From IMG/VR virus record IMGVR_UViG_3300017705_000602: DNA of 64,000 nucleotides. The stretch is one strand, 5' to 3'. Below, one piece after another: positions 2,031 to 37,068 of the stretch (position 1 is its first letter; the number at the start of each line of letters is the position of its first letter). Both the position numbers and the translations under genes were made by a program. The stretch comes from a virus. Taxonomy: Duplodnaviria; Heunggongvirae; Uroviricota; Caudoviricetes. The notes below the pieces were generated by a model that was given only the letters and a program-made list of their open reading frames with translations, had not been told where the DNA came from and did not search any database.

Positions 2031-3293
2031 ATGTCTCAAGATTTAACAACAGTAGGTGCGGATCGTGCGCAACGATTAATCCGTGTATGTATGAGCAAGA
2101 AACGCCCGGTCTTCCTTTGGGGTCCTCCTGGCATTGGTAAATCAGAACTAGTCGAGCAAATCGGCAAGCAAGAAAAACGTCCTGTAATTGACATGCGTAT
2201 GTTATTGCTTGACCCAACTGACGTAAAAGGTATTCCGTACTACAACGTTTCGAAAAATACAATGGAATGGGCGCCTCCTGGTGAACTACCTGTTGTTACT
2301 ACCGACAACGATGTTAAAACTGCAACTGAATACTTCGACAACCTAAAGTCTCGTTTCGAAGAAAACAGTTTAGACGTTGATAGCTTAACTGCTGAGCGTG
2401 CTATTTCAAATGCCGAAGAGAACTTAAAACAACTTGAAGCCGCGTTTGGCTTACAAAATGCAATTTTGTTTTTGGACGAACTGGTTGCGGCGCCACCAAG
2501 TGTACAGGCAGCGGCATATCAGCTGATCCTGAATCGTCGTGTTGGTCAGTATCAATTGCCAGAAGGCATTGACATGATTGCCGCAGGTAACCGCGAAACA
2601 GATAAAGCGGTAAGCTATAAAATGCCTACTCCGCTTGCTAACCGCTTTATTCACTTAGAGATGGAAGCAGACTTTGATTCATGGCAACGTTGGGCAATTA
2701 ACAACAATGTTCACCCGGACGTTGTAGGTTACTTGTCAGACAAAAAACAAGACTTGATGTCTTTCGATCCTAAGAATGCAGGCAAGGCATTTGCTACTCC
2801 GCGTTCATGGGTGTTTGTAAGCGACTTGCTGTTTGCACAGCGCGAGTTCAACCTTGACAACACTGATTTAGGTATCTTGATTGAAGGTACAATTGGTCCA
2901 GGTACCAAGATTGAATTCATGAACCACTTGAAGTACTCTGCTCGTTTACCGCGTGTTGAAGATGTACTTGCAGGTAAGGTTAAGAAACTTGACCGCGAAG
3001 TTGCTAGCGAGATTTCAGCTCACTACGCCTTAACGGTAGCAATGTGTTATGAGTTGCAACGCCATTACAAACTTGCCGAAGACACCAGCGACGAAGAACA
3101 TGATTCTAAGTCACTGCACGAAGCGGCAGATTACTACTTCGAGTTCATCATGGAGAACTTTAAGCAAGAAATGTGTGTACTTGGTGCGCAGACACTGTTA
3201 CGCGAGTACGGAGTTAAGTTTAAGCCAGGTAAAATGAAGAACTTTAGCAAGTTCCACGACAAGTTTGGCGAGTACATCATCGACAACGACTAG
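2031..3293 (+). CDS. MoxR-like AAA+ ATPase
   Basis: Walker A GPPGIGKS, Walker B LFLDE, AAGNR, PLANRF, TPRSW; strong SD; adjacent VWA gene. Confidence 0.9.
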   Translation: MSQDLTTVGADRAQRLIRVCMSKKRPVFLWGPPGIGKSELVEQIGKQEKRPVIDMRMLLLDPTDVKGIPYYNVSKNTMEWAPPGELPVVTTDNDVKTATEYFDNLKSRFEENSLDVDSLTAERAISNAEENLKQLEAAFGLQNAILFLDELVAAPPSVQAAAYQLILNRRVGQYQLPEGIDMIAAGNRETDKAVSYKMPTPLANRFIHLEMEADFDSWQRWAINNNVHPDVVGYLSDKKQDLMSFDPKNAGKAFATPRSWVFVSDLLFAQREFNLDNTDLGILIEGTIGPGTKIEFMNHLKYSARLPRVEDVLAGKVKKLDREVASEISAHYALTVAMCYELQRHYKLAEDTSDEEHDSKSLHEAADYYFEFIMENFKQEMCVLGAQTLLREYGVKFKPGKMKNFSKFHDKFGEYIIDND

Positions 3294-3309
3294 TTGTTGT
3301 GTGAAGCTA

Positions 3310-3331
3310 GGTAGCGTCTTCGGGCGCTACC
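3310..3331 (+). terminator. cUUCGg hairpin after AAA gene
   Basis: GGTAGCGTC-TTCG-GGCGCTACC; no clear U-tract. Confidence 0.5.
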
Positions 3332-3417
3332 GTCCCACACTTTCCCCGTTATCTTTCAGTTGACCTTGTGTATCTTTTGTTGTATAATACATAAAACTTG
3401 CACTCAAGGAGTAAGAC

Positions 3418-4668
3418 ATGTCTATTAATCAAGACGCCCTAAAGAAGCTACGCAAAGCTAGAACAAAGATGTTACTGCGTTTACCGTTTTTCGGTAAGCT
3501 TGCAACACATCTTAAACTAGTTGAAGCCGATTGGATTCCCACTATTGGTACCGATTCGGTTCGCGTTTACTACAACCCAGAATTCATTAACGCACTTTCC
3601 AAAGACGAAATTGTATTTGTGCTAGCTCACAACGTTATGCACTGTGTTTACAATCATCACGGTCGACGTTCAGGTCGAGATAAAAAGACTTGGGACTCTG
3701 CGTGTGACTACGTTACAAACAACGAACTGATCGATTTGCGCGTTGGTAAAATGCCCAACTTGATCAAGGTACTGCACGACAAAAAATACACTGACATGAC
3801 TGCGGAAGAAGTGTATAACGACTTAATGCAACAGCAACAACAGCAACAAGGCGATGGCAGCGGCGATGGCAGCGGCGATGGCGATGGCAGCGGTTCTGCT
3901 CCTGGATCTTTCGACGAGCACTTTGAGCCTAACAAAGGTGACAAAGACGCTAACGAACAAGGTTCAGAAGAAGAAGATGGTGCCAAGTCGGACGGTCAGG
4001 TTATTATGACTGACCCGGACTATAACGAAGCGCAAGAACAATTCAAGCAAGCTGTGTTGGCAGCGGCCAAGTCTGCAAAAGATGCAGGCGAAGTACCGGC
4101 AGGCATACGCAGAATGATCAAAGAGCTTACTAATCCTAAAATGGATTGGCGTGAGCTGTTAGCGGCACAAATCAAATCTTGTGTTCCTAGCGATTACATG
4201 TGGGAGCGAGGCAATCGTAAAACACGTTCGTTAGGCATACACATGCCTGACATGGATCGCGAGGATCGTGTCGAAGTTTGTGTTGCAATTGATACGTCGG
4301 GTTCGATTAGCGAAAAAATGTTACGTGATTTCTTAAGCGAAATTCAAGGCATCATGGAACAGTTTACCGACTTCGAAATACAAATTTGGACTTTTGACAC
4401 CAAAGTGTACAATAGACAAGTGTTTGGACCTTCGAACATTGATGATCTTGTCGAGTATGATCTGCAAGGTGGTGGCGGTACTGACTTTGACGTTAACTGG
4501 ACGTTCATGAAACATGAAGAGATTGAACCGAATCGATTCATTATGATGACAGATGGTTACCCATGGAATAGCTGGGGCGACGAAGACTACTGCGATACAA
4601 TCTTTTTGATACACGGCAACGATTCGATCATTGCACCATTCGGAATAACTTGTTATTACGAAGAATAA
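3418..4668 (+). CDS. DUF2201-type metallopeptidase-like + VWA domain protein
   Basis: HxxxH (HNVMH) N-domain, acidic/Gly linker, MIDAS DTSGS, GGGGTDF, TDG. Confidence 0.88.
   Translation: MSINQDALKKLRKARTKMLLRLPFFGKLATHLKLVEADWIPTIGTDSVRVYYNPEFINALSKDEIVFVLAHNVMHCVYNHHGRRSGRDKKTWDSACDYVTNNELIDLRVGKMPNLIKVLHDKKYTDMTAEEVYNDLMQQQQQQQGDGSGDGSGDGDGSGSAPGSFDEHFEPNKGDKDANEQGSEEEDGAKSDGQVIMTDPDYNEAQEQFKQAVLAAAKSAKDAGEVPAGIRRMIKELTNPKMDWRELLAAQIKSCVPSDYMWERGNRKTRSLGIHMPDMDREDRVEVCVAIDTSGSISEKMLRDFLSEIQGIMEQFTDFEIQIWTFDTKVYNRQVFGPSNIDDLVEYDLQGGGGTDFDVNWTFMKHEEIEPNRFIMMTDGYPWNSWGDEDYCDTIFLIHGNDSIIAPFGITCYYEE
3829..3891 (+). repeat. poly-Gln plus GGCGATGGCAGC (GDGS) coding repeat
   Basis: CAR run followed by about 3.5 copies of a 12-mer in the VWA-protein linker. 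Confidence 0.8.
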
Positions 4669-4725: not shown

Positions 4726-4998
4726 ATGATGTCACAGCATGCTATTACAAATATCACAGTTGGATATAAATTTTTAAACAAGAACAATAATTACAACCTA
4801 GTTGATCTTATTTTTCGAGATTGGATATACAATCATTGCTCAGCTTCAGTTGATCATAAAAGAAAAGAGATTACTTTACCCGAAGACGAGTATGTTTGGT
4901 TAATTATTGCATATCCAACTAGCACCCTGTCAAAGTATGTTTCAATTGAATTTGACAGCTTTAAGAAAGAGTTCCAGGATGGATACATTAATACTTAA
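4726..4998 (+). CDS. hypothetical protein
   Basis: ORF following TAAATA motif at 4715. Confidence 0.55.
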   Translation: MMSQHAITNITVGYKFLNKNNNYNLVDLIFRDWIYNHCSASVDHKRKEITLPEDEYVWLIIAYPTSTLSKYVSIEFDSFKKEFQDGYINT

Positions 4999-5578
4999 CA
5001 AGGACGGGTCACCACTATCTATGTTGCCGCTATCGGTTGTTAGCTGGAAAGTAGCAATTAGACTTGTCACGCTAGAAAAAGTAATTGTCTTAAAAGATCA
5101 CGACGATTGGGTTGTAAGAAGCCCGCATGCGGAGTGGCCTGTTCCTTCAGTTGTATTAACAACAGAATATGTGAAATGGAGCAAGCAGGTCAAATATAAT
5201 CGCAATAACGTCTTCCTAAGAGATAACTACACATGTCAATACTGCAATACTCAAATGAATAAAATCAATTTGACTATTGACCATGTGCTTCCAAGAAGCT
5301 TAGGCGGTGGTACATCATGGGAAAACGTTACAACAGCTTGCATGAAGTGTAACTCAGCTAAAGGAAACAATAAGAAAATTGTTCCTAAAGTAAAGCCACG
5401 CAAGCCTACTTACTACGAGCTTATCGCAAAGGAACAAGACAAGCTGTTAACAGTAAGAGATCTTAGTTGGTTGAATTATGTTTCATGGCCAGCCAAGAAT
5501 GTTATATATAAACCACACAAAACAAAACGGAGTTTAAATGACACAAGAACAGAAAAGCGAAGCGTCAGCGCAAACTGA
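4979..5578 (+). CDS. HNH endonuclease (McrA-like)
   Basis: RDNYTCQYC, TIDHVLPRSLGG, WENVTTACMKCNSAKGN. Confidence 0.9.
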   Translation: MDTLILNKDGSPLSMLPLSVVSWKVAIRLVTLEKVIVLKDHDDWVVRSPHAEWPVPSVVLTTEYVKWSKQVKYNRNNVFLRDNYTCQYCNTQMNKINLTIDHVLPRSLGGGTSWENVTTACMKCNSAKGNNKKIVPKVKPRKPTYYELIAKEQDKLLTVRDLSWLNYVSWPAKNVIYKPHKTKRSLNDTRTEKRSVSAN

Positions 5579-27206: not shown

Positions 27207-27458
27207 ATGTTCAAGCAACATCATTACAAAGTAATAATTGCTAGTTTAGGTATCCTGGTAGCGTTGTCGGGTTGTGGCAAGCAAGAGCAGAATGACGAAA
27301 AACAAGTTGATACGCGCCCTGTACTGACAGTGACTCATTTTGTAACACCCGAAGGACTTGAGTGCGTGTCTATTAAGCCGCGCTTTAATAGCGATCCCGA
27401 AGGCATCAGTTGCAACTGGGCCGACTGGGTTTGGCGAAGAAATAACGGAAAATTATGA
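27207..27458 (+). CDS. lipoprotein
   Basis: Lipobox LSGC. Confidence 0.7.
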   Translation: MFKQHHYKVIIASLGILVALSGCGKQEQNDEKQVDTRPVLTVTHFVTPEGLECVSIKPRFNSDPEGISCNWADWVWRRNNGKL

Positions 27459-27823
27459 AACACAAAATGTATTGCATTTTCGCAAAAGAAAGTGTAAAAA
27501 AGATGAACGGTATACGCGGTAAAATGTGTACACAGGCAGGGCATGCATACGTGCATACGCTGTTACAAGCACAGCAAGACTGGCCCGAGCATGTGCAAGC
27601 ATACTTAGACAGCGGGCATGCGTACAAAATAACGCTCATTGTTGATACAGTTGCACAGTTAGAAGCATTGCAAAAGGCCTATGTCAACCAATGCGGAACA
27701 AAGCTAGTAACCGACAAAGGCTTTACTGTGTTCACTGAACCAACTACAACCTGCTTGGGCATTGGCCCAATCAGTGAAGATCTTGTTGGTGACGACTTAC
27801 AAAACTTGAAAACTTTTACGTGA
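27455..27823 (+). CDS. pth2: peptidyl-tRNA hydrolase, Pth2 family
   Basis: GKMCTQAGHA, KITL, DKGFTVF..PTTTCLGIGP. Confidence 0.85.
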   Translation: MKHKMYCIFAKESVKKMNGIRGKMCTQAGHAYVHTLLQAQQDWPEHVQAYLDSGHAYKITLIVDTVAQLEALQKAYVNQCGTKLVTDKGFTVFTEPTTTCLGIGPISEDLVGDDLQNLKTFT

Positions 27824-28818: not shown

Positions 28819-28886
28819 GGACAAAGGTAGTTCCTATCACGATGCTCTAAGCATCAGCCTTTTAAGCTGACCTATACTACCCGTCC
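28819..28886 (+). ncRNA. TCCTAT-family hairpin RNA carrying a tRNA-Lys(UUU)-like anticodon stem-loop
   Basis: GGAC/GTCC and GGTAGT/ACTACC stems, TCCTAT, internal TCAGC-CTTTTAA-GCTGA. Confidence 0.7.
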
Positions 28887-30647: not shown

Positions 30648-31364
30648 ATGAAATATAAAACAGTAAACAGCGTGCAGGCACAGTTCAAGGACTTGACAGC
30701 CGATCTTGAAACTCAGCTTGTCGGTCATGCTAAAAAATGGAATAGAAAATCTGGACTATTGTCGTTCGGGCCAATGGCATACTGTCATGTTACATTTCAG
30801 AATGGCTCGCCAGCTTTTGAGATTAACTTGCTGAGTGATCAGTTTGGTGAACTCGACGAAGAGGTACAGCTTGACATTCCGTATTCGTATAAAATAAAAG
30901 CCACTTACGATCGCAAGCAGAAAGTGTTTGTGCTCAGCACAGTTGAAATCGATTATATAGCGTACTACCAAGACGAACGTTCAAGGTGCAAGTTATCGAC
31001 ACCCGAAACTACAACTAACCCACGTTTGATCGCTATCATTGAAAAGAAGTTCAACAACAACTTTAACTTATCAAGCGATCAAGAAAAAACTTACATGTTG
31101 TTAAATGGTCACCGGTGTCGTGGTGAACTGATGAAAGGTGTGCTTGAAGATGTGTTCGAATGTTTTCAAAAGTTTGTAGATCTTGATGCGCGTCGAGCAA
31201 AAAGAAATCGTGTGTTTGCTTGTACTTTTGGGTTCTGGATACACCCTAGCATGATCGACACTAAAAGTCAGTTCCAGATTGTAATAAGCTCGATGTTTAA
31301 TGGCATGGTTTCGTTCAGCATGTTCAAGATATATCTCGGGCTGTTGATAATGTGGCTGGTATGA
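30648..31364 (+). CDS. hypothetical protein
   Basis: Long ORF, C-terminal hydrophobic segment. Confidence 0.65.
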   Translation: MKYKTVNSVQAQFKDLTADLETQLVGHAKKWNRKSGLLSFGPMAYCHVTFQNGSPAFEINLLSDQFGELDEEVQLDIPYSYKIKATYDRKQKVFVLSTVEIDYIAYYQDERSRCKLSTPETTTNPRLIAIIEKKFNNNFNLSSDQEKTYMLLNGHRCRGELMKGVLEDVFECFQKFVDLDARRAKRNRVFACTFGFWIHPSMIDTKSQFQIVISSMFNGMVSFSMFKIYLGLLIMWLV

Positions 31365-32215
31365 ATATATTAATCGACTCATTGTTTACATCATCCGGCA
31401 TACAAAAAGACTCGTTTGTGTCCTGTGTAGAGGACACTCGCTGTAAGGTGTTTGTGTCAAACTATGTTCGTCACCGAGGTCAATTTGATGTTAGCGTTCC
31501 GTCGACAGAACCTTTATTGGTGTATGGATCAATTCAGTTTGTCGAAGACGCCTTAAAGTACTTTACAAATGCAGTTGCATTTTATCATCCTTCTCGATTT
31601 TCTGTTTCGTATGCAATGTCAAACCTTCCAGTTGACATGTTTGTTAACAACGATGCTTATTTTTTTCCGGTCAGTGTACTGCAACAACGATATGCATTAC
31701 GAAAACATAAAGGAATAAGAAACACTGCTGATCAGGACAAATATTTCATAAGGTCGGACAGCGGCAAAAAGCTGTTTGCCGGTAAATGTATTCCACACAA
31801 CGAATTGCACTGCTTCGATAGAGAAGGATTGTCTCCGCATAGCATAGTGGTGTTCAACCAAGCTAAAGATATCCGCATGGAAGTACGATGCTTTATTTAC
31901 GGTGACCAGGTTGTTAGTTGGTCGGTTACACATCTACACGGCAACCCAGTAACAGAATATACCGGCCCGGACAAGATTGCATTCTCTTTGGTTACGTTTG
32001 CAGAAGAAGTTGCCCAAACTGTCGATCAGCTAGGATTTCTAGACACTGTGTATGTGTGCGATGTTGCGCTTTATCGGGATATCGGAAACGGAAGAATGCA
32101 CATTGGTATTATGGAATTTAATGCTGCCTCTACATCCGATTTACACAACTGCGATATAACAGCAGTGTTCACAGCAATGGTCGACTGTATCAACAAAGAA
32201 AACGGTTGCATTTGA
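31361..32215 (+). CDS. ATP-grasp domain protein (DUF4343-like)
   Basis: FIRSDSGKKLFAG, EVRCFI, VYVCDVA, IMEFN. Confidence 0.7.
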   Translation: MNILIDSLFTSSGIQKDSFVSCVEDTRCKVFVSNYVRHRGQFDVSVPSTEPLLVYGSIQFVEDALKYFTNAVAFYHPSRFSVSYAMSNLPVDMFVNNDAYFFPVSVLQQRYALRKHKGIRNTADQDKYFIRSDSGKKLFAGKCIPHNELHCFDREGLSPHSIVVFNQAKDIRMEVRCFIYGDQVVSWSVTHLHGNPVTEYTGPDKIAFSLVTFAEEVAQTVDQLGFLDTVYVCDVALYRDIGNGRMHIGIMEFNAASTSDLHNCDITAVFTAMVDCINKENGCI

Positions 32216-33686: not shown

Positions 33687-34004
33687 ATGAATACATATTT
33701 AAAAACTCAAGCAAAACTGCTCGCAGTGCTAATGGTCAAGGAAGTTCTTGCTAAAGGCATTGTGTCAATTGAATTCTACAAAGCCGACGACACAGTTAGG
33801 CCCATGCGTGCTACACTAGATCCGAATCTTTTGCCTGCAAGCGAAAAGAAAGATGAATACGATTCTGCAATTGATCTTAACGTTGTAAAAGTTTTCGACG
33901 TTGAAGCAACAGCATGGCGTTCATTTCGCATGGACAGACTAAAGTCAATCGACGGACTTGACTACAAATTGTACTTTAACAATTTTTTCGAGTCAGCAAT
34001 TTAA
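33687..34004 (+). CDS. WYL-like SH3-fold protein (DUF2693-like)
   Basis: FYKADDTVRPMRATL...VFDVEATAWRSFR. Confidence 0.75.
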   Translation: MNTYLKTQAKLLAVLMVKEVLAKGIVSIEFYKADDTVRPMRATLDPNLLPASEKKDEYDSAIDLNVVKVFDVEATAWRSFRMDRLKSIDGLDYKLYFNNFFESAI

Positions 34005-34017
34005 TTGTAAAAAGCAG

Positions 34018-34046
34018 TTGACAAAGATACTGGCCTACCATATAAT
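34018..34046 (+). promoter_or_regulatory. consensus sigma70 promoter
   Basis: TTGACA-17bp-TATAAT. Confidence 0.85.
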
Positions 34047-34075: not shown

Positions 34076-35869
34076 ATGTCATTAGTTAAATTATCACTTG
34101 CATTGTTCAACGTAGTGCCAGAAAGCACAAAACCGCCAGCAAAGTCTGCGCATGTAGACCTTGACAATGGCATAGTAATTTCAAAAGAAGCAAGATATGC
34201 TAAGGCTGATATCGTTGCGTTCCTGAAACAAAAGAAACTGTCGGGCGAAGATCTAAACAAGACATGGCACAAAACATGGGCCGAAGTCAAGTCAAGAGAA
34301 AACTCGCACGATGTTGTCCAAGCAGTCATGGGGTTCATTAACGGACTCGGTGCAAAGCTGGACAAAGAAATTCGTTTACCGAACGAAACAATCGGCATTG
34401 ATGATCTAGATTTGCGATTGCAGACTGTGGTTGCAGTGCCAGTTGATGAAATCAACGACCGTGCTTTGCAAATGTTACAATCTGGCATGGCACTAAAAAC
34501 ACAAACAATACACGATTTGTTTGAGATATTGTCTGCTACAGGTTATCAGTTTACTGGCGACGAAGATATACGCAACAAAGAAGCCGTTGTTATACTTGCT
34601 GATACTCATGGTATCTATCCAAAAGAGCCAGTTGAGGCTCTACGCTATGCAGTATACAAAGCTACCGATTCGGCCATGCTGATCAAGAGTGCGGGTGCAG
34701 TAGAAGCAATCAAGGCGTCTTCATTTGATGCAACAGATGTATTCAAAGACGTAGGCGAGACTCGAATGTCCGAAGTGTTCAATCGCTTCAAGCCATTGTT
34801 TCTTGCATTCAAAGGCAAGTCTGCTAAGTCACGTTCGTCAGTTAACCGTATTGCAAAGCTGAGCAAAACACATCACAAGCCAATGCCTGTGAATGCCTTG
34901 CAAGAAGTTACTGCTCGTAGACTGGTGGACACTGAATTACACTGGCTGTCCAATGCAACTGTGTTTGCACTGTTCAAGGCATTGTCTGCTTGTCATACAC
35001 GCATGAATGGTCGCACAGTGTTTGCATACCACATACGTAACGGTAAAGGCTGGTACAAGACAGAATCGTGCAAAGCGTCTTCGGATGACTTACAGCACAA
35101 CTTTGATCTAATAGTGAATGAACTAAAAGGTCGTGTGAACACCGAAGGTAAAAAGATCTTTATACCGGAAGGTATTGAATTTGCCCTGCCTACATCCGAA
35201 AAGATGTTTGTTGGCAATATTCCAACTGGTACCAAGTTCACATCCGATGGTATTGCCGCTGGCATATATTGGAGAAACGAATGGGGTGCAACCGATCTCG
35301 ATTTGTCTACTCTGGACGTCCGTGGTACAAAAACTGGCTGGAACTCTTTTTATACCAGCCAACACGGCGAAATTGCATACTCGGGTGATATAACCGATGC
35401 ATACAACGGCGCAGTCGAATACATGAATATTCAGTCAGGTATAACCGAACCGGTGTTGTTGCTTAACAATGTGTACTCAGGTAACGAAGATTGCGAATAC
35501 AAGGTTGTTGTGGGTCAAGGTACCGATATTACAAAATCGTACATGATGGATCCTAATAGTGTATGGGTAGAAGCAATGTCCGCATCGGTGAAACGCGAAA
35601 CCATAGTCGGATTGTTTTTACCGGAGACTGGTAACCGAGCTTCGTTTGTGATGCTTAACACTGCTATCGGCAATGCGAATGCGTCTGCAGGCAATATACA
35701 CTCTACTCAATTCAACCGTGCGTTGGTTGAGCAGTACAGCAATCAATTTTCGTTAAATGAATTGTTAGAATATGTAGGTTTTGAGTTGACACCATCGCAG
35801 GATGATGCTACAATAGACTTATCGTTAGACAACTTGGATCGTGATACATTTGTATCGTTATTCAGTTAA
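34076..35869 (+). CDS. 597-aa protein with helical N-terminus and TerD-like C-terminal domain
   Basis: GIYW...DLDLS...GWN...YSGDITDA..GAVEY resembles the TerD core. Confidence 0.6.
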   Translation: MSLVKLSLALFNVVPESTKPPAKSAHVDLDNGIVISKEARYAKADIVAFLKQKKLSGEDLNKTWHKTWAEVKSRENSHDVVQAVMGFINGLGAKLDKEIRLPNETIGIDDLDLRLQTVVAVPVDEINDRALQMLQSGMALKTQTIHDLFEILSATGYQFTGDEDIRNKEAVVILADTHGIYPKEPVEALRYAVYKATDSAMLIKSAGAVEAIKASSFDATDVFKDVGETRMSEVFNRFKPLFLAFKGKSAKSRSSVNRIAKLSKTHHKPMPVNALQEVTARRLVDTELHWLSNATVFALFKALSACHTRMNGRTVFAYHIRNGKGWYKTESCKASSDDLQHNFDLIVNELKGRVNTEGKKIFIPEGIEFALPTSEKMFVGNIPTGTKFTSDGIAAGIYWRNEWGATDLDLSTLDVRGTKTGWNSFYTSQHGEIAYSGDITDAYNGAVEYMNIQSGITEPVLLLNNVYSGNEDCEYKVVVGQGTDITKSYMMDPNSVWVEAMSASVKRETIVGLFLPETGNRASFVMLNTAIGNANASAGNIHSTQFNRALVEQYSNQFSLNELLEYVGFELTPSQDDATIDLSLDNLDRDTFVSLFS

Positions 35870-35875
35870 TAGTTA

Positions 35876-35966
35876 TGCGGTGAAAGCGCCGGGCTGATAA
35901 ACCGGAGAAGCTGAAAGGAATAATACAAGAACAAATGCTTGTACCTTGCGCATGTCGCACACCGCA
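35876..35966 (+). ncRNA. structured RNA with tRNA-Ile(GAU)-like anticodon loop
   Basis: TGCGGTG/CACCGCA closing stem, CCGG-G-CTGATAA-A-CCGG, TACAAG/CTTGTA. Confidence 0.6.
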
Positions 35967-35984: not shown

Positions 35985-36206
35985 ATGACAAAGCCGTTCA
36001 AAGTAAAAGTTAAAGATCAAGACGAGTTCGAATCATGCGTGTTTGGTGCCGACGATTTACTCGAACAGTGGCCAGCACTGCTTACCGAAGGCGCAGAAGT
36101 AATACAAAGCGGAAGCATGTATTACTTGTGCGATGCGAAACAAGGTATCATATCCGACTCGGCTTTCTTTAGCAAAAACGAAATGCAATACTTAGAAAAG
36201 ATTTAA
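35985..36206 (+). CDS. hypothetical protein
   Basis: 73-aa ORF with SD. Confidence 0.6.
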   Translation: MTKPFKVKVKDQDEFESCVFGADDLLEQWPALLTEGAEVIQSGSMYYLCDAKQGIISDSAFFSKNEMQYLEKI

Positions 36207-36212
36207 AAGTTT

Positions 36213-36464
36213 TGGGCAAAAGTGGTTCCTATAAAAAATTATTGGAAATGAATACTACTCGCCCACCCAGTTTTGACATAGAGTGTTCCTATAAAAAATC
36301 ATTCGGGCTAAAAACCCGAAACCAGCAAAATACACTCCGTCAACTATTTTTAGGCACAAGCAGTTCCTATAACATACTACGAATATATATACTGCTCGCC
36401 TACTTATTTGGGCACATAAGGTTCCTATTACAGTCTTGAAAACTACTATCATACCTTTCGCCCA
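36213..36464 (+). ncRNA. tandem array of four TCCTAT-family hairpin RNAs
   Basis: Units 36213-36265, 36273-36343, 36351-36402, 36409-36464 with covarying stems. Confidence 0.8.
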
Positions 36465-36514
36465 CCCAACTCAGAAATGCTAGCTTTCGCTAGCTTGAAA
36501 CACTAAGTAAATAC

Positions 36515-36751
36515 AAAGGTTGTCTCGCTTATATTTTTGGTTGATGTGTAACGTTATATACCAGTATCTCTGTAACGTTAATCAGTTTTGTAGCATCTGT
36601 AAAGCCGAATTAAGCTACTGTTACAAGAGGAGCTCCCAGGTAACAGATAATTGGCTTAAACCTGCGAGTTAGGATAGAATTAAGTTTCACGGCGTGCTCC
36701 CTGCCTAGACAGTCGCTTATACAGGCGTGATACTGTTATGAGACAACCTTT
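36515..36751 (+). ncRNA. 237-nt structured RNA
   Basis: 12-bp terminal stem AAAGGTTGTCTC/GAGACAACCTTT, nested helices, TAAATA just upstream, T-run downstream. Confidence 0.65.
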
Positions 36752-36783
36752 TTATTTTTTTGGTAATACTATACGGAGATAAA

Positions 36784-37068
36784 ATGACCATTAAACCTTT
36801 ACACGATTACGTAGTAGTCGAAGCAAAACAAAAACAAGTTTCGAAAGTTATCCATGTTGCTGGCGATAGCAAAGGTGACACAGGAACAGTTATCGCAGTT
36901 GGCCCCGGTGAGTTGTTACCATCAGGTGAACGCGGAGAGATGTCTCTTAAAGCAGGAGACGAGATTATCTTTGCAAACGATGTTATTCGTGAAGATAAAC
37001 AAGACGACGGTTCTATCCAATACTGGATGAGAATTGTTAATGTTATGGGTATCCTAAGAGAATCGTAA
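36784..37068 (+). CDS. groES: co-chaperonin GroES
   Basis: IKPLHDYVVV, GTVIAVGPG, LKAGDEIIF, VMGIL. Confidence 0.88.
   Translation: MTIKPLHDYVVVEAKQKQVSKVIHVAGDSKGDTGTVIAVGPGELLPSGERGEMSLKAGDEIIFANDVIREDKQDDGSIQYWMRIVNVMGILRES

Follow-up and report, generated by a model that had tools for sequence, protein, structure and literature searches.

In the rsr-yrlBA-rtcBA operon, several small RNAs, among them YrlA and YrlB, stand beside the one gene of the Ro60 (Rsr) protein and on its strand. The ends of a Y RNA pair into a long bulged stem, from which a tRNA-like domain in the order T-acceptor-D extends in YrlA, and the C-terminus of Ro60 is a vWA domain. Anticodon nucleases are among the chief defences against phages. 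According to the accessible text of earlier reports, RtcB-type RNA-repair neighbourhoods are the place of Ro60 and Y RNAs in other species (PMC7790460, 10.1101/312249, PMC7824862), the Ro60-binding motif of YrlA is GNCGAAN0-1G (PMC4201824), and competitive inhibition of an anticodon nuclease has been proposed for YrlA (PMC7790460). As far as the accessible part of PMC11464382 describes them, tRNA-Lys is the target of PARIS and the RNA counter-measure to anticodon nucleases is a cleavage-resistant tRNA.

We analysed a 64,000-nt stretch of Caudoviricetes DNA (IMG/VR record IMGVR_UViG_3300017705_000602), referred to as the window, in which an array of small RNA units lies near the gene of a 597-aa protein. 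Across its family, the arrangement is like that of Ro60 and the Yrl RNAs in that several small RNAs accompany one protein gene on the same strand, the two ends of a unit form a long stem with bulges, genes for RtcB and a divergent regulator are neighbours, and the module occurs in bacteria and phages; in units of some relatives, a T-acceptor-D domain extends from the bulged stem as in YrlA. It differs in that the units carry GUUCCU with a 3x1 internal loop instead of GNCGAAN0-1G, which was found anywhere in just 3 of 190 unique units, that the 597-aa protein ends in a TerD fold and has no TROVE match, and that the regulator beside the units is of the WYL type, not RtcR. The units can also show an anticodon loop, which YrlA lacks in the accessible description of 10.1101/312249. 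The best reading is likely a ribonucleoprotein of the Y RNA type, but without Ro60, in which mimics of tRNAs are presented.

Structured RNA units in the window

Five units were found in the window:
Unit 1, 36213..36265, + strand: scaffold and a weak stem-loop with loop UU-GGA-AA (Ser GGA-like, 36242-36248).
Unit 2, 36273..36343, + strand: scaffold and a strong 6-bp hairpin with loop CUAAAAA (36308-36314).
Unit 3, 36351..36402, + strand: scaffold and a 3-bp stem-loop, CU-ACG-AA (Arg ACG-like, 36377-36383).
Unit 4, 36409..36464, + strand: scaffold and a stem-loop, CU-UGA-AA (Ser UGA-like, 36435-36441).
Unit 5, lone copy, 28819..28886, + strand: scaffold, a first hairpin, then a 5-bp stem-loop, CU-UUU-AA (Lys UUU-like, 28859-28865).

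A first-pass annotation of this DNA had proposed four units with a two-stem scaffold at 36213-36464, and all four were present, their folds having z = -3.3, -4.4, -3.8 and -2.3 for units 1 to 4 against dinucleotide shuffles (-3.5 for unit 5). Each window unit has an outer stem, a bulge of 3-4 nt and an inner stem of 5-6 bp ending in GU/AC; UCCUAU, the variable region and a bulged C complete it. We trained a covariance model on 70 homologous units from outside the window, and it recovered exactly these five units in the 64 kb at 33-55 bits (54.8, 44.8, 52.9, 33.3 and 35.7 for units 1 to 5) and nothing more to E=1. Contigs of the independent runs X5, X7 and X9 matched pieces of the array with 0 differences, and no single contig spanned the whole array. 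ARAGORN found 0 tRNA genes in the window.

The scaffold and its distribution

On sequence evidence, the units belong to a widespread structured-RNA family that is apparently undescribed. The family scaffold comprises an outer stem, a 3-nt bulge, a 6-bp stem, GUUCCU(A/U) and a bulged C, with the 5' strand consensus RRC-ANA-RRNR-GUUCCUA in 190 unique units; the TCCTAT that had been called invariant holds in the window units but not across the family, where GUUCCU is followed by A or U. The results showed that 9 of the 11 scaffold pairs change on both sides, with a covariation score of 0.75 against 0.26 when shuffled, in rows selected for pairing. At viral sites chosen by the invariant letters alone, all 7 free positions pair in 121 of 159, compared with 4.8% of strand swaps, and bacterial sites chosen in the same way pair fully in 50 of 116, compared with 8.6%; loci were taken without kinship correction, and the bacterial counts are not independent since that set is mostly Chryseobacterium. 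These results bear out the earlier proposal that the scaffold is constant and covaries while the payload varies. Reading the array as protein-coding (75-aa ORF, 36212-36439) was rejected because the stems covary and the unit number varies, and a reading as DNA operators or promoter repeats was rejected because the stems are strand-specific with G-U pairs and tRNA-fused forms exist.

Comparison with Rfam, including Y RNA and YrlA, gave no match to a described family: the window had no gathering-level match and none to the Y/Yrl models, and 12 related loci returned tRNA and tmRNA matches only. Weak matches by E-value (rliB, c4-a1b1, isrK and snoR144; scans at E<=10) were judged to be chance. A DNA-level search against cultured phages gave no match, and a full-text literature search, with most subscription papers outside its reach, turned up no account of the RNA or of the protein. 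The cultured carriers are the cyanophages S-CRM01 and S-CBWM1 and many Bacteroidota; both protein and RNA are present in these two cyanophages and in the GenBank phage Phass-1. The T4 species 1 and 2 RNAs (rnaC, rnaD) are likewise small phage RNAs in a tRNA cluster, and those of T4 are stable; unlike the units, they have no GUUCCU motif and no model match, and the 5 phage records in which the 597-aa protein was found do not include T4. The E. coli 6S RNA also gave no match to the covariance model.

Coupling of the units to the gene of the 597-aa protein

The genes and promoter candidates considered with the units are as follows:
R2K-clade ATP-grasp protein, 31352..32215, + strand: context gene, upstream in the window.
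WYL_2 domain protein, 33687..34004, + strand: Pfam PF10902 (E 5e-14), directly 5' of the protein gene; putative functional link.
Sigma70-type promoter consensus, 34018..34046, + strand: 12/12 match, upstream of the protein gene; consensus match only.
597-aa protein, predicted RNA-binding partner, 34076..35869, + strand: helical N-terminal region (1-357) and TerD-fold C-terminal domain (389-550).
Sigma70-type promoter consensus, 35786..35814, + strand: 11/12 match with extended -10, inside the end of the 597-aa gene; candidate promoter of the RNA cluster, consensus match only.

The first pattern scan, made with the RNA alone, returned 31 loci, mostly chance, with clear paired units in L005/L011, L024 and L029; in L005/L011 and L029 the arrays lay directly 5' of homologues of the 597-aa protein. 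A link to this gene had been suggested from the window, and the wider loci agree with it: scaffold units lie within 4 kb of a gene of the family at 68 of 80 viral and 80 of 80 bacterial loci, compared with 2 of 160 when shuffled. (Here and in every count over 80 or 160, the protein-selected loci are the best 80 of 235 viral and the best 80 of 221 bacterial ones.) Among the 12 viral misses, 5 have units under a relaxed motif and 5 start at or inside the gene; the other two (L041 and L053) had no scaffold unit, relaxed motif included. In a second scan from the RNA alone (at least 120 loci), in which many contigs were already known through the protein search, the protein was found at 61 of the 76 loci with two or more paired units and at 4 of the 36 without a paired unit, and 12 of the 15 protein-less loci among the 76 are shorter than 900 nt. 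Across 121 Bacteroidia genomes, protein and RNA co-occur side by side in the same 2, one of which is the centre around which the sample was drawn. The module of non-coding RNA and protein is real and apparently undescribed.

The 597-aa protein has no Pfam, PHROG or NCBIfam match, and its family comprises 1329 representatives at 50% identity clustering. In the AF2 model (pLDDT 84.9), the C-terminal domain matched TerD with Z 11.1 (second 10.6), rmsd 3.2 and 141 aligned residues, the next unrelated row having 6.6, and with a Foldseek probability of 1.00. The N-terminal model (pLDDT 84.9) had a best Z of 5.8, no Foldseek match at E<=0.001, and no Ro60 among the matches listed; matches to botulinum toxin and ryanodine receptor folds (TM about 0.1, rmsd >20) were taken as noise. 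Several Arg, Lys, His and aromatic positions are invariant, and these basic and aromatic residues would fit RNA binding by the protein. No longer fused form was found among proteins of 1106-3155 aa, which is weak evidence.

Ro60 itself was rejected as the identity of the protein, with no PDB sequence match, no Pfam match, and no Ro60 in the fold searches of the whole protein or the N-terminal region; its absence from the fold lists may still leave room for a remote relation. TROVE gave no match in 49 members of the protein family at E<=1. The true TROVE loci L219-L222 have no scaffold unit, and in genomes G002 and G125, where a true TROVE gene is present at another place, it is not accompanied by such an RNA; in G002 the covariance model matched the locus of the TerD protein alone. 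Atlas feature neighbours of the 597-aa protein contain TerD (0.91) and Prok-RING_4 (0.88, 0.83), and the Pfam text on Prok-RING_4/SCO0854-type proteins presumably refers to 'ROT/TROVE-like repeats plus TerD'. NF041916 was weakly matched by 5 of 7 scanned proteins, all relatives, at 13-25 bits against a cut-off of 600 and over just ~80 residues where the TerD region begins; neither NF041916 nor a RING family was matched by the window protein. A search for Prok-RING_4 in 301 Bacteroidota genomes gave nothing over the cut-off, and no RNA partner was seen for that family.

tRNA parts displayed by the units

Payloads took four forms: an anticodon stem-loop, a T arm, a T-acceptor-D domain in YrlA order and a whole tRNA. 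In the window, a YT-NNN-AA hairpin of at least 3 bp was found in 5 of 5 units against 0.1 expected in shuffles, a contrast that is inflated on its own because the pattern was picked with the units already in view. A small hairpin had been described in every variable loop, but at minimum energy units 1 and 3 fold without the short anticodon hairpin. A tRNA anticodon loop has 7 nt of the form Y32-U33-NNN-R37-N38 and sits on a stem. Loops identical to those of real tRNAs were found in four of the five window units; among 415 real tRNAs in the fetched loci, those of units 1, 3 and 4 had 3, 8 and 6 matches, respectively. The loop of unit 2, CUAAAAA, had none, and its counterparts in relatives have loops of 4, 6, 7, 7 and 8 nt; the loop is not conserved. 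Because of this absence and the varying loop lengths, unit 2 is doubtful as an anticodon mimic and probably is not one.

Comparison with relatives showed that the loop of unit 1 is kept in L001 and L345 despite changed scaffold stems, while no counterpart of unit 3 was seen in either. L345, 71% identical and with six units, keeps both Ser loops, one with a compensated stem: the loop of unit 4 is identical and its closing pair changed from U-A to A-U. L001, the closest relative, keeps only the loop of unit 1 and scored 0 of 3 on the 3-bp hairpin test. The two-hairpin design of unit 5 recurs with CUU, GCU, UUU and UGG loops in L042, L051, L161 and L132.

T-arm units were removed ahead of all loop counts, and L020 and L025 were left out as chance, both here and in the comparisons of two-hairpin designs and whole-tRNA forms. 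An exact real anticodon loop capping a hairpin was found in 13 of 129 viral units (0.9 in dinucleotide shuffles) and in 30 of 136 bacterial units (0.7), a real enrichment among homologues; among 105 units new at a later stage the count was 17 against 1.1. CU and UU loops were counted apart because UU...AA loops are self-complementary. Of 265 phage or metagenome units, 39 have CU-NNN-A(A/C/U) hairpins, compared with 4 antisense and 4.5 shuffled, whereas UU-type loops (21, compared with 28 antisense) have no support as a class.

Taken as anticodons, the CU loops correspond to Lys, Asn, Ser, Tyr, Leu, Cys, Ile, Glu, Val, Phe, Trp and Arg, with 0 stop-reading anticodons among the 39 and a non-natural A34 in 6; Lys UUU and Asn GUU, tied at 6 of 39 each, are the commonest phage payloads. 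Residue-specific flanks were seen, as in CUGUCAC (Asp), CUGUAAA (Tyr), CUGUUAA (Asn) and CUUUUAA/CUCUUAA (Lys), as well as a UGG/CGG wobble swap for Pro. Most payloads, however, are short AU-rich strands in which no loop could be recognised: even when the stem is ignored, any real loop is missing from 100 of 129 viral units, and many payload stems have just 3 bp. It had been claimed that each unit displays an anticodon mimic, which does not hold for most homologues; the scaffold is commonly kept without any anticodon pattern, yet the CU-type enrichment stands, and the anticodon-loop idea appears from these sequences to hold for a subset of units. Since most units have no loop, the scaffold must have an additional role that is independent of it.

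T arms were found in 17 unique units, 4 of them in the full YrlA order T-acceptor-D; a T-arm unit is present in L345, and the five window units have none. The whole-tRNA form, in which the scaffold is circularly permuted into the anticodon arm, occurs at 13 of 80 viral and 53 of 80 bacterial loci and matches RF00005, with an insert, over 112-113 nt; L024 and L161 retain an anticodon loop behind the scaffold (Thr UGU and Met CAU, respectively). This form could overlap with b7a-tRNA, the Band-7-associated tRNA-like RNA predicted by Burroughs and Aravind in 2016 as a non-coding RNA of RtcB neighbourhoods, a comparison that rests on the second-hand description in the accessible text of 10.1101/312249. 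There, b7a-tRNA is described with Band-7 proteins, which were found at just 4 of 160 loci here. Parts of the present system may be touched on both by b7a-tRNA and by the proteins described as 'ROT/TROVE-like plus TerD'. The tRNA-like genes of 112-113 nt lie in L024 (3876-3988, - strand), L161 (765-877), L158 (3685-3797), L036 (1523-1634) and L043 (940-1052); they score as tRNA in Rfam and could be catalogued as odd or pseudo tRNAs. In Phass-1 (L217, W02:C1 ~105745-105850, - strand), a phage classed in a code-15 clade, a whole tRNA with a CUA anticodon is enclosed by a scaffold unit.

A predicted protein-RNA particle and its possible decoy role

We consider the existence of a protein-RNA particle, as predicted here, well probable. 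The explanation that we prefer, and to which we give an even chance, is a structured-RNA family whose constant stem likely binds the 597-aa protein and whose variable tRNA look-alikes likely lure tRNA-cutting enzymes as decoys or baits; taken by itself, such a role of the particle is just as evenly poised. Tentatively, and at somewhat less than even weight, the module may be a second Y-RNA-type system without Ro60, with one protein and a programmable set of RNA baits that each present another tRNA part or anticodon, the phage form being a multi-specific decoy array against tRNA-cutting immunity whose anticodons are swapped to track host nucleases.

Under the decoy reading, the array would be transcribed from the candidate promoter at 35786-35814 and then cleaved at the short linkers, which would release single RNAs of about 55-75 nt. 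The protein would grip the bulge, GUUCCU and the bulged-C site and stabilise each RNA, as Ro60 does with Y RNAs. Host anticodon nucleases would then mistake the displayed loops for tRNA anticodon arms and be soaked up, so that real tRNAs would be spared in infection; in bacteria, the same particle would act with RtcB and RlaP under WYL control on tRNA damage. Such a role would be like that of T5 tRNA-Lys against PARIS, a counter-defence against host tRNA cleavage; the T5 tRNAs are working and cleavage-resistant as described in the accessible part of PMC11464382, whereas the units are non-decoding fragments on a scaffold.

The decoy reading is favoured because of the covariation, the coupling to the protein, the RNA-repair and tRNA-cluster context, the enrichment of CU loops and the commonness of Lys UUU. 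It is weakened above all because most units are loopless, and also because the loop of unit 2 is not conserved, the UU type is not enriched, some loops carry A34, many stems have 3 bp and the units are mostly upstream of the gene. If it is true, a protein-stabilised array of exchangeable anticodon loops would be a readable code predicting, host by host, which tRNAs are attacked. A protein, a bulged-stem RNA, a tRNA mimic and an RtcB operon make up the Ro60/Y RNA design, which has a parallel here with an unannotated protein family of >1,300 clusters, and this family offers a direct test of the function of tRNA-like RNAs in bacterial RNA-repair operons, a question raised in the accessible text of PMC7790460.

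RNA-repair neighbourhood and a possible tethering role

At the bacterial loci (best 80 of 221), RtcB was found at 67 of 80, WYL at 59 and RlaP at 35 (39 of 160 overall), and WYL, RtcB, the RNAs, the protein and often RlaP form an RNA-repair operon. The module is not phage-specific but a component of a bacterial RNA-repair operon too. A PNKP gene occurs at 8 viral loci and 1 bacterial locus, a PHA02142 OB-fold gene at 6 viral loci, and Rnl1, Thg1, Band-7 and R2K genes at further loci, an R2K gene adjoining the protein at 10 of 80 bacterial loci. In S-CRM01 and S-CBWM1 the protein gene is located inside tRNA clusters.

This context also suits a tether or adaptor like the Deinococcus Y RNA, in which the tRNA-like end would recruit RtcB, Rnl ligases, RlaP, exonucleases or tRNA-modifying enzymes, and tethering is the role shown for Y RNA in the accessible text of PMC4201824. 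Besides the RtcB, RlaP, PNKP and Rnl genes, the YrlA-order domains in 4 of 17 T-loop units and the tRNA-with-insert form argue for it. Against it, a ligase seldom adjoins the viral loci, with no RtcB within 4 kb in the 80 examined (best 80 of 235), and tethering leaves the several codon-specific anticodon loops per genome, five in the window, unexplained. We regard a tether as possible but rather unlikely.

Position of the units and other readings

All 374 units detected share the strand of the protein gene, and they are located upstream of it at 142 of 147 loci (350 of 366 units), the last often just ahead of the start codon. This position fits a cis-regulatory leader as well, in which the repeats would be binding sites of the protein on its own mRNA (autogenous control) and the anticodon loops cleavage sensors activating a repair operon. 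A WYL regulator is close by, and Salmonella RtcR senses cut tRNAs according to the accessible text of PMC7790460. However, the window array lies downstream of the gene, past another ORF, with unit 5 some 5 kb off; in the complete 416-kb phage G003 (L207, L213-L216), six units are scattered over ~180 kb, four of them among tRNA genes; and the whole-tRNA forms resemble free RNAs. We consider a cis leader unlikely.

Units are located among tRNA genes in several phages, which would also be expected if the scaffold were functional and the loops were roleless, decayed remains of captured tRNA-cluster genes, most units being loopless and some loops non-canonical. We hold this to be less likely again: the loop of unit 4 is kept in L345 with a compensated stem change, the two-hairpin design recurs with exchanged anticodons, and the window has four real loops yet no tRNA gene. 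A ribosome-directed mimic, in which protein and anticodon loop would enter a stalled A site codon-specifically for rescue or shut-off, agrees with loops that read sense codons only and with the PTH2 gene 1 kb from unit 5, but the 68-kDa protein lacks a release-factor or EF-Tu-like fold and the stems are very short, which makes it highly improbable beside the decoy reading.

Further conserved elements in the window

The window resembles a fragment of a marine jumbo phage genome: the AAA ATPase encoded in it has 46.7% identity to that of PA5oct-like phages, and the runs containing window sequence are marine or seawater metagenomes. A pair of genes for an AAA ATPase and a DUF2201 vWA/metallopeptidase (2031-4668, + strand) is followed by an HNH nuclease gene (4907-5578). 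The peptidyl-tRNA hydrolase PTH2 gene is at 27455-27823 (+ strand), 1 kb 5' of unit 5. A 73-aa ORF (35985-36206, + strand; phrog_25670) separates the array from the protein gene; it resembles proteins of Xanthomonas and Escherichia jumbo phages and is also found in L001 but is absent at this place in L345. A GroES-like co-chaperonin gene (36784-37068, + strand) is directly 3' of the RNA cluster, likewise in L001 and L345.

A second conserved structured RNA of ~245 nt was found between the array and groES (36510-36755, + strand; L001 8385-8640, L345 2375-2625). Its fold is multibranched; across three sequences, 21 of the 77 pairs predicted differ on both sides, and Rfam gave no match. A 13-nt stretch is common with E. 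coli 6S RNA, the local score being weak (p 0.13, 0.03). A third conserved structured element (35876-35966, + strand; L001 7806-7884, L345 ~1820-1895) is located directly 3' of the 597-aa gene. It has the terminal stem GCGGUG/CACCGC and, in the window and L345, a hairpin loop with CU-GAU-AA, like that of tRNA-Ile(GAU); in L001 the hairpin loop contains CC-GAU-AA.
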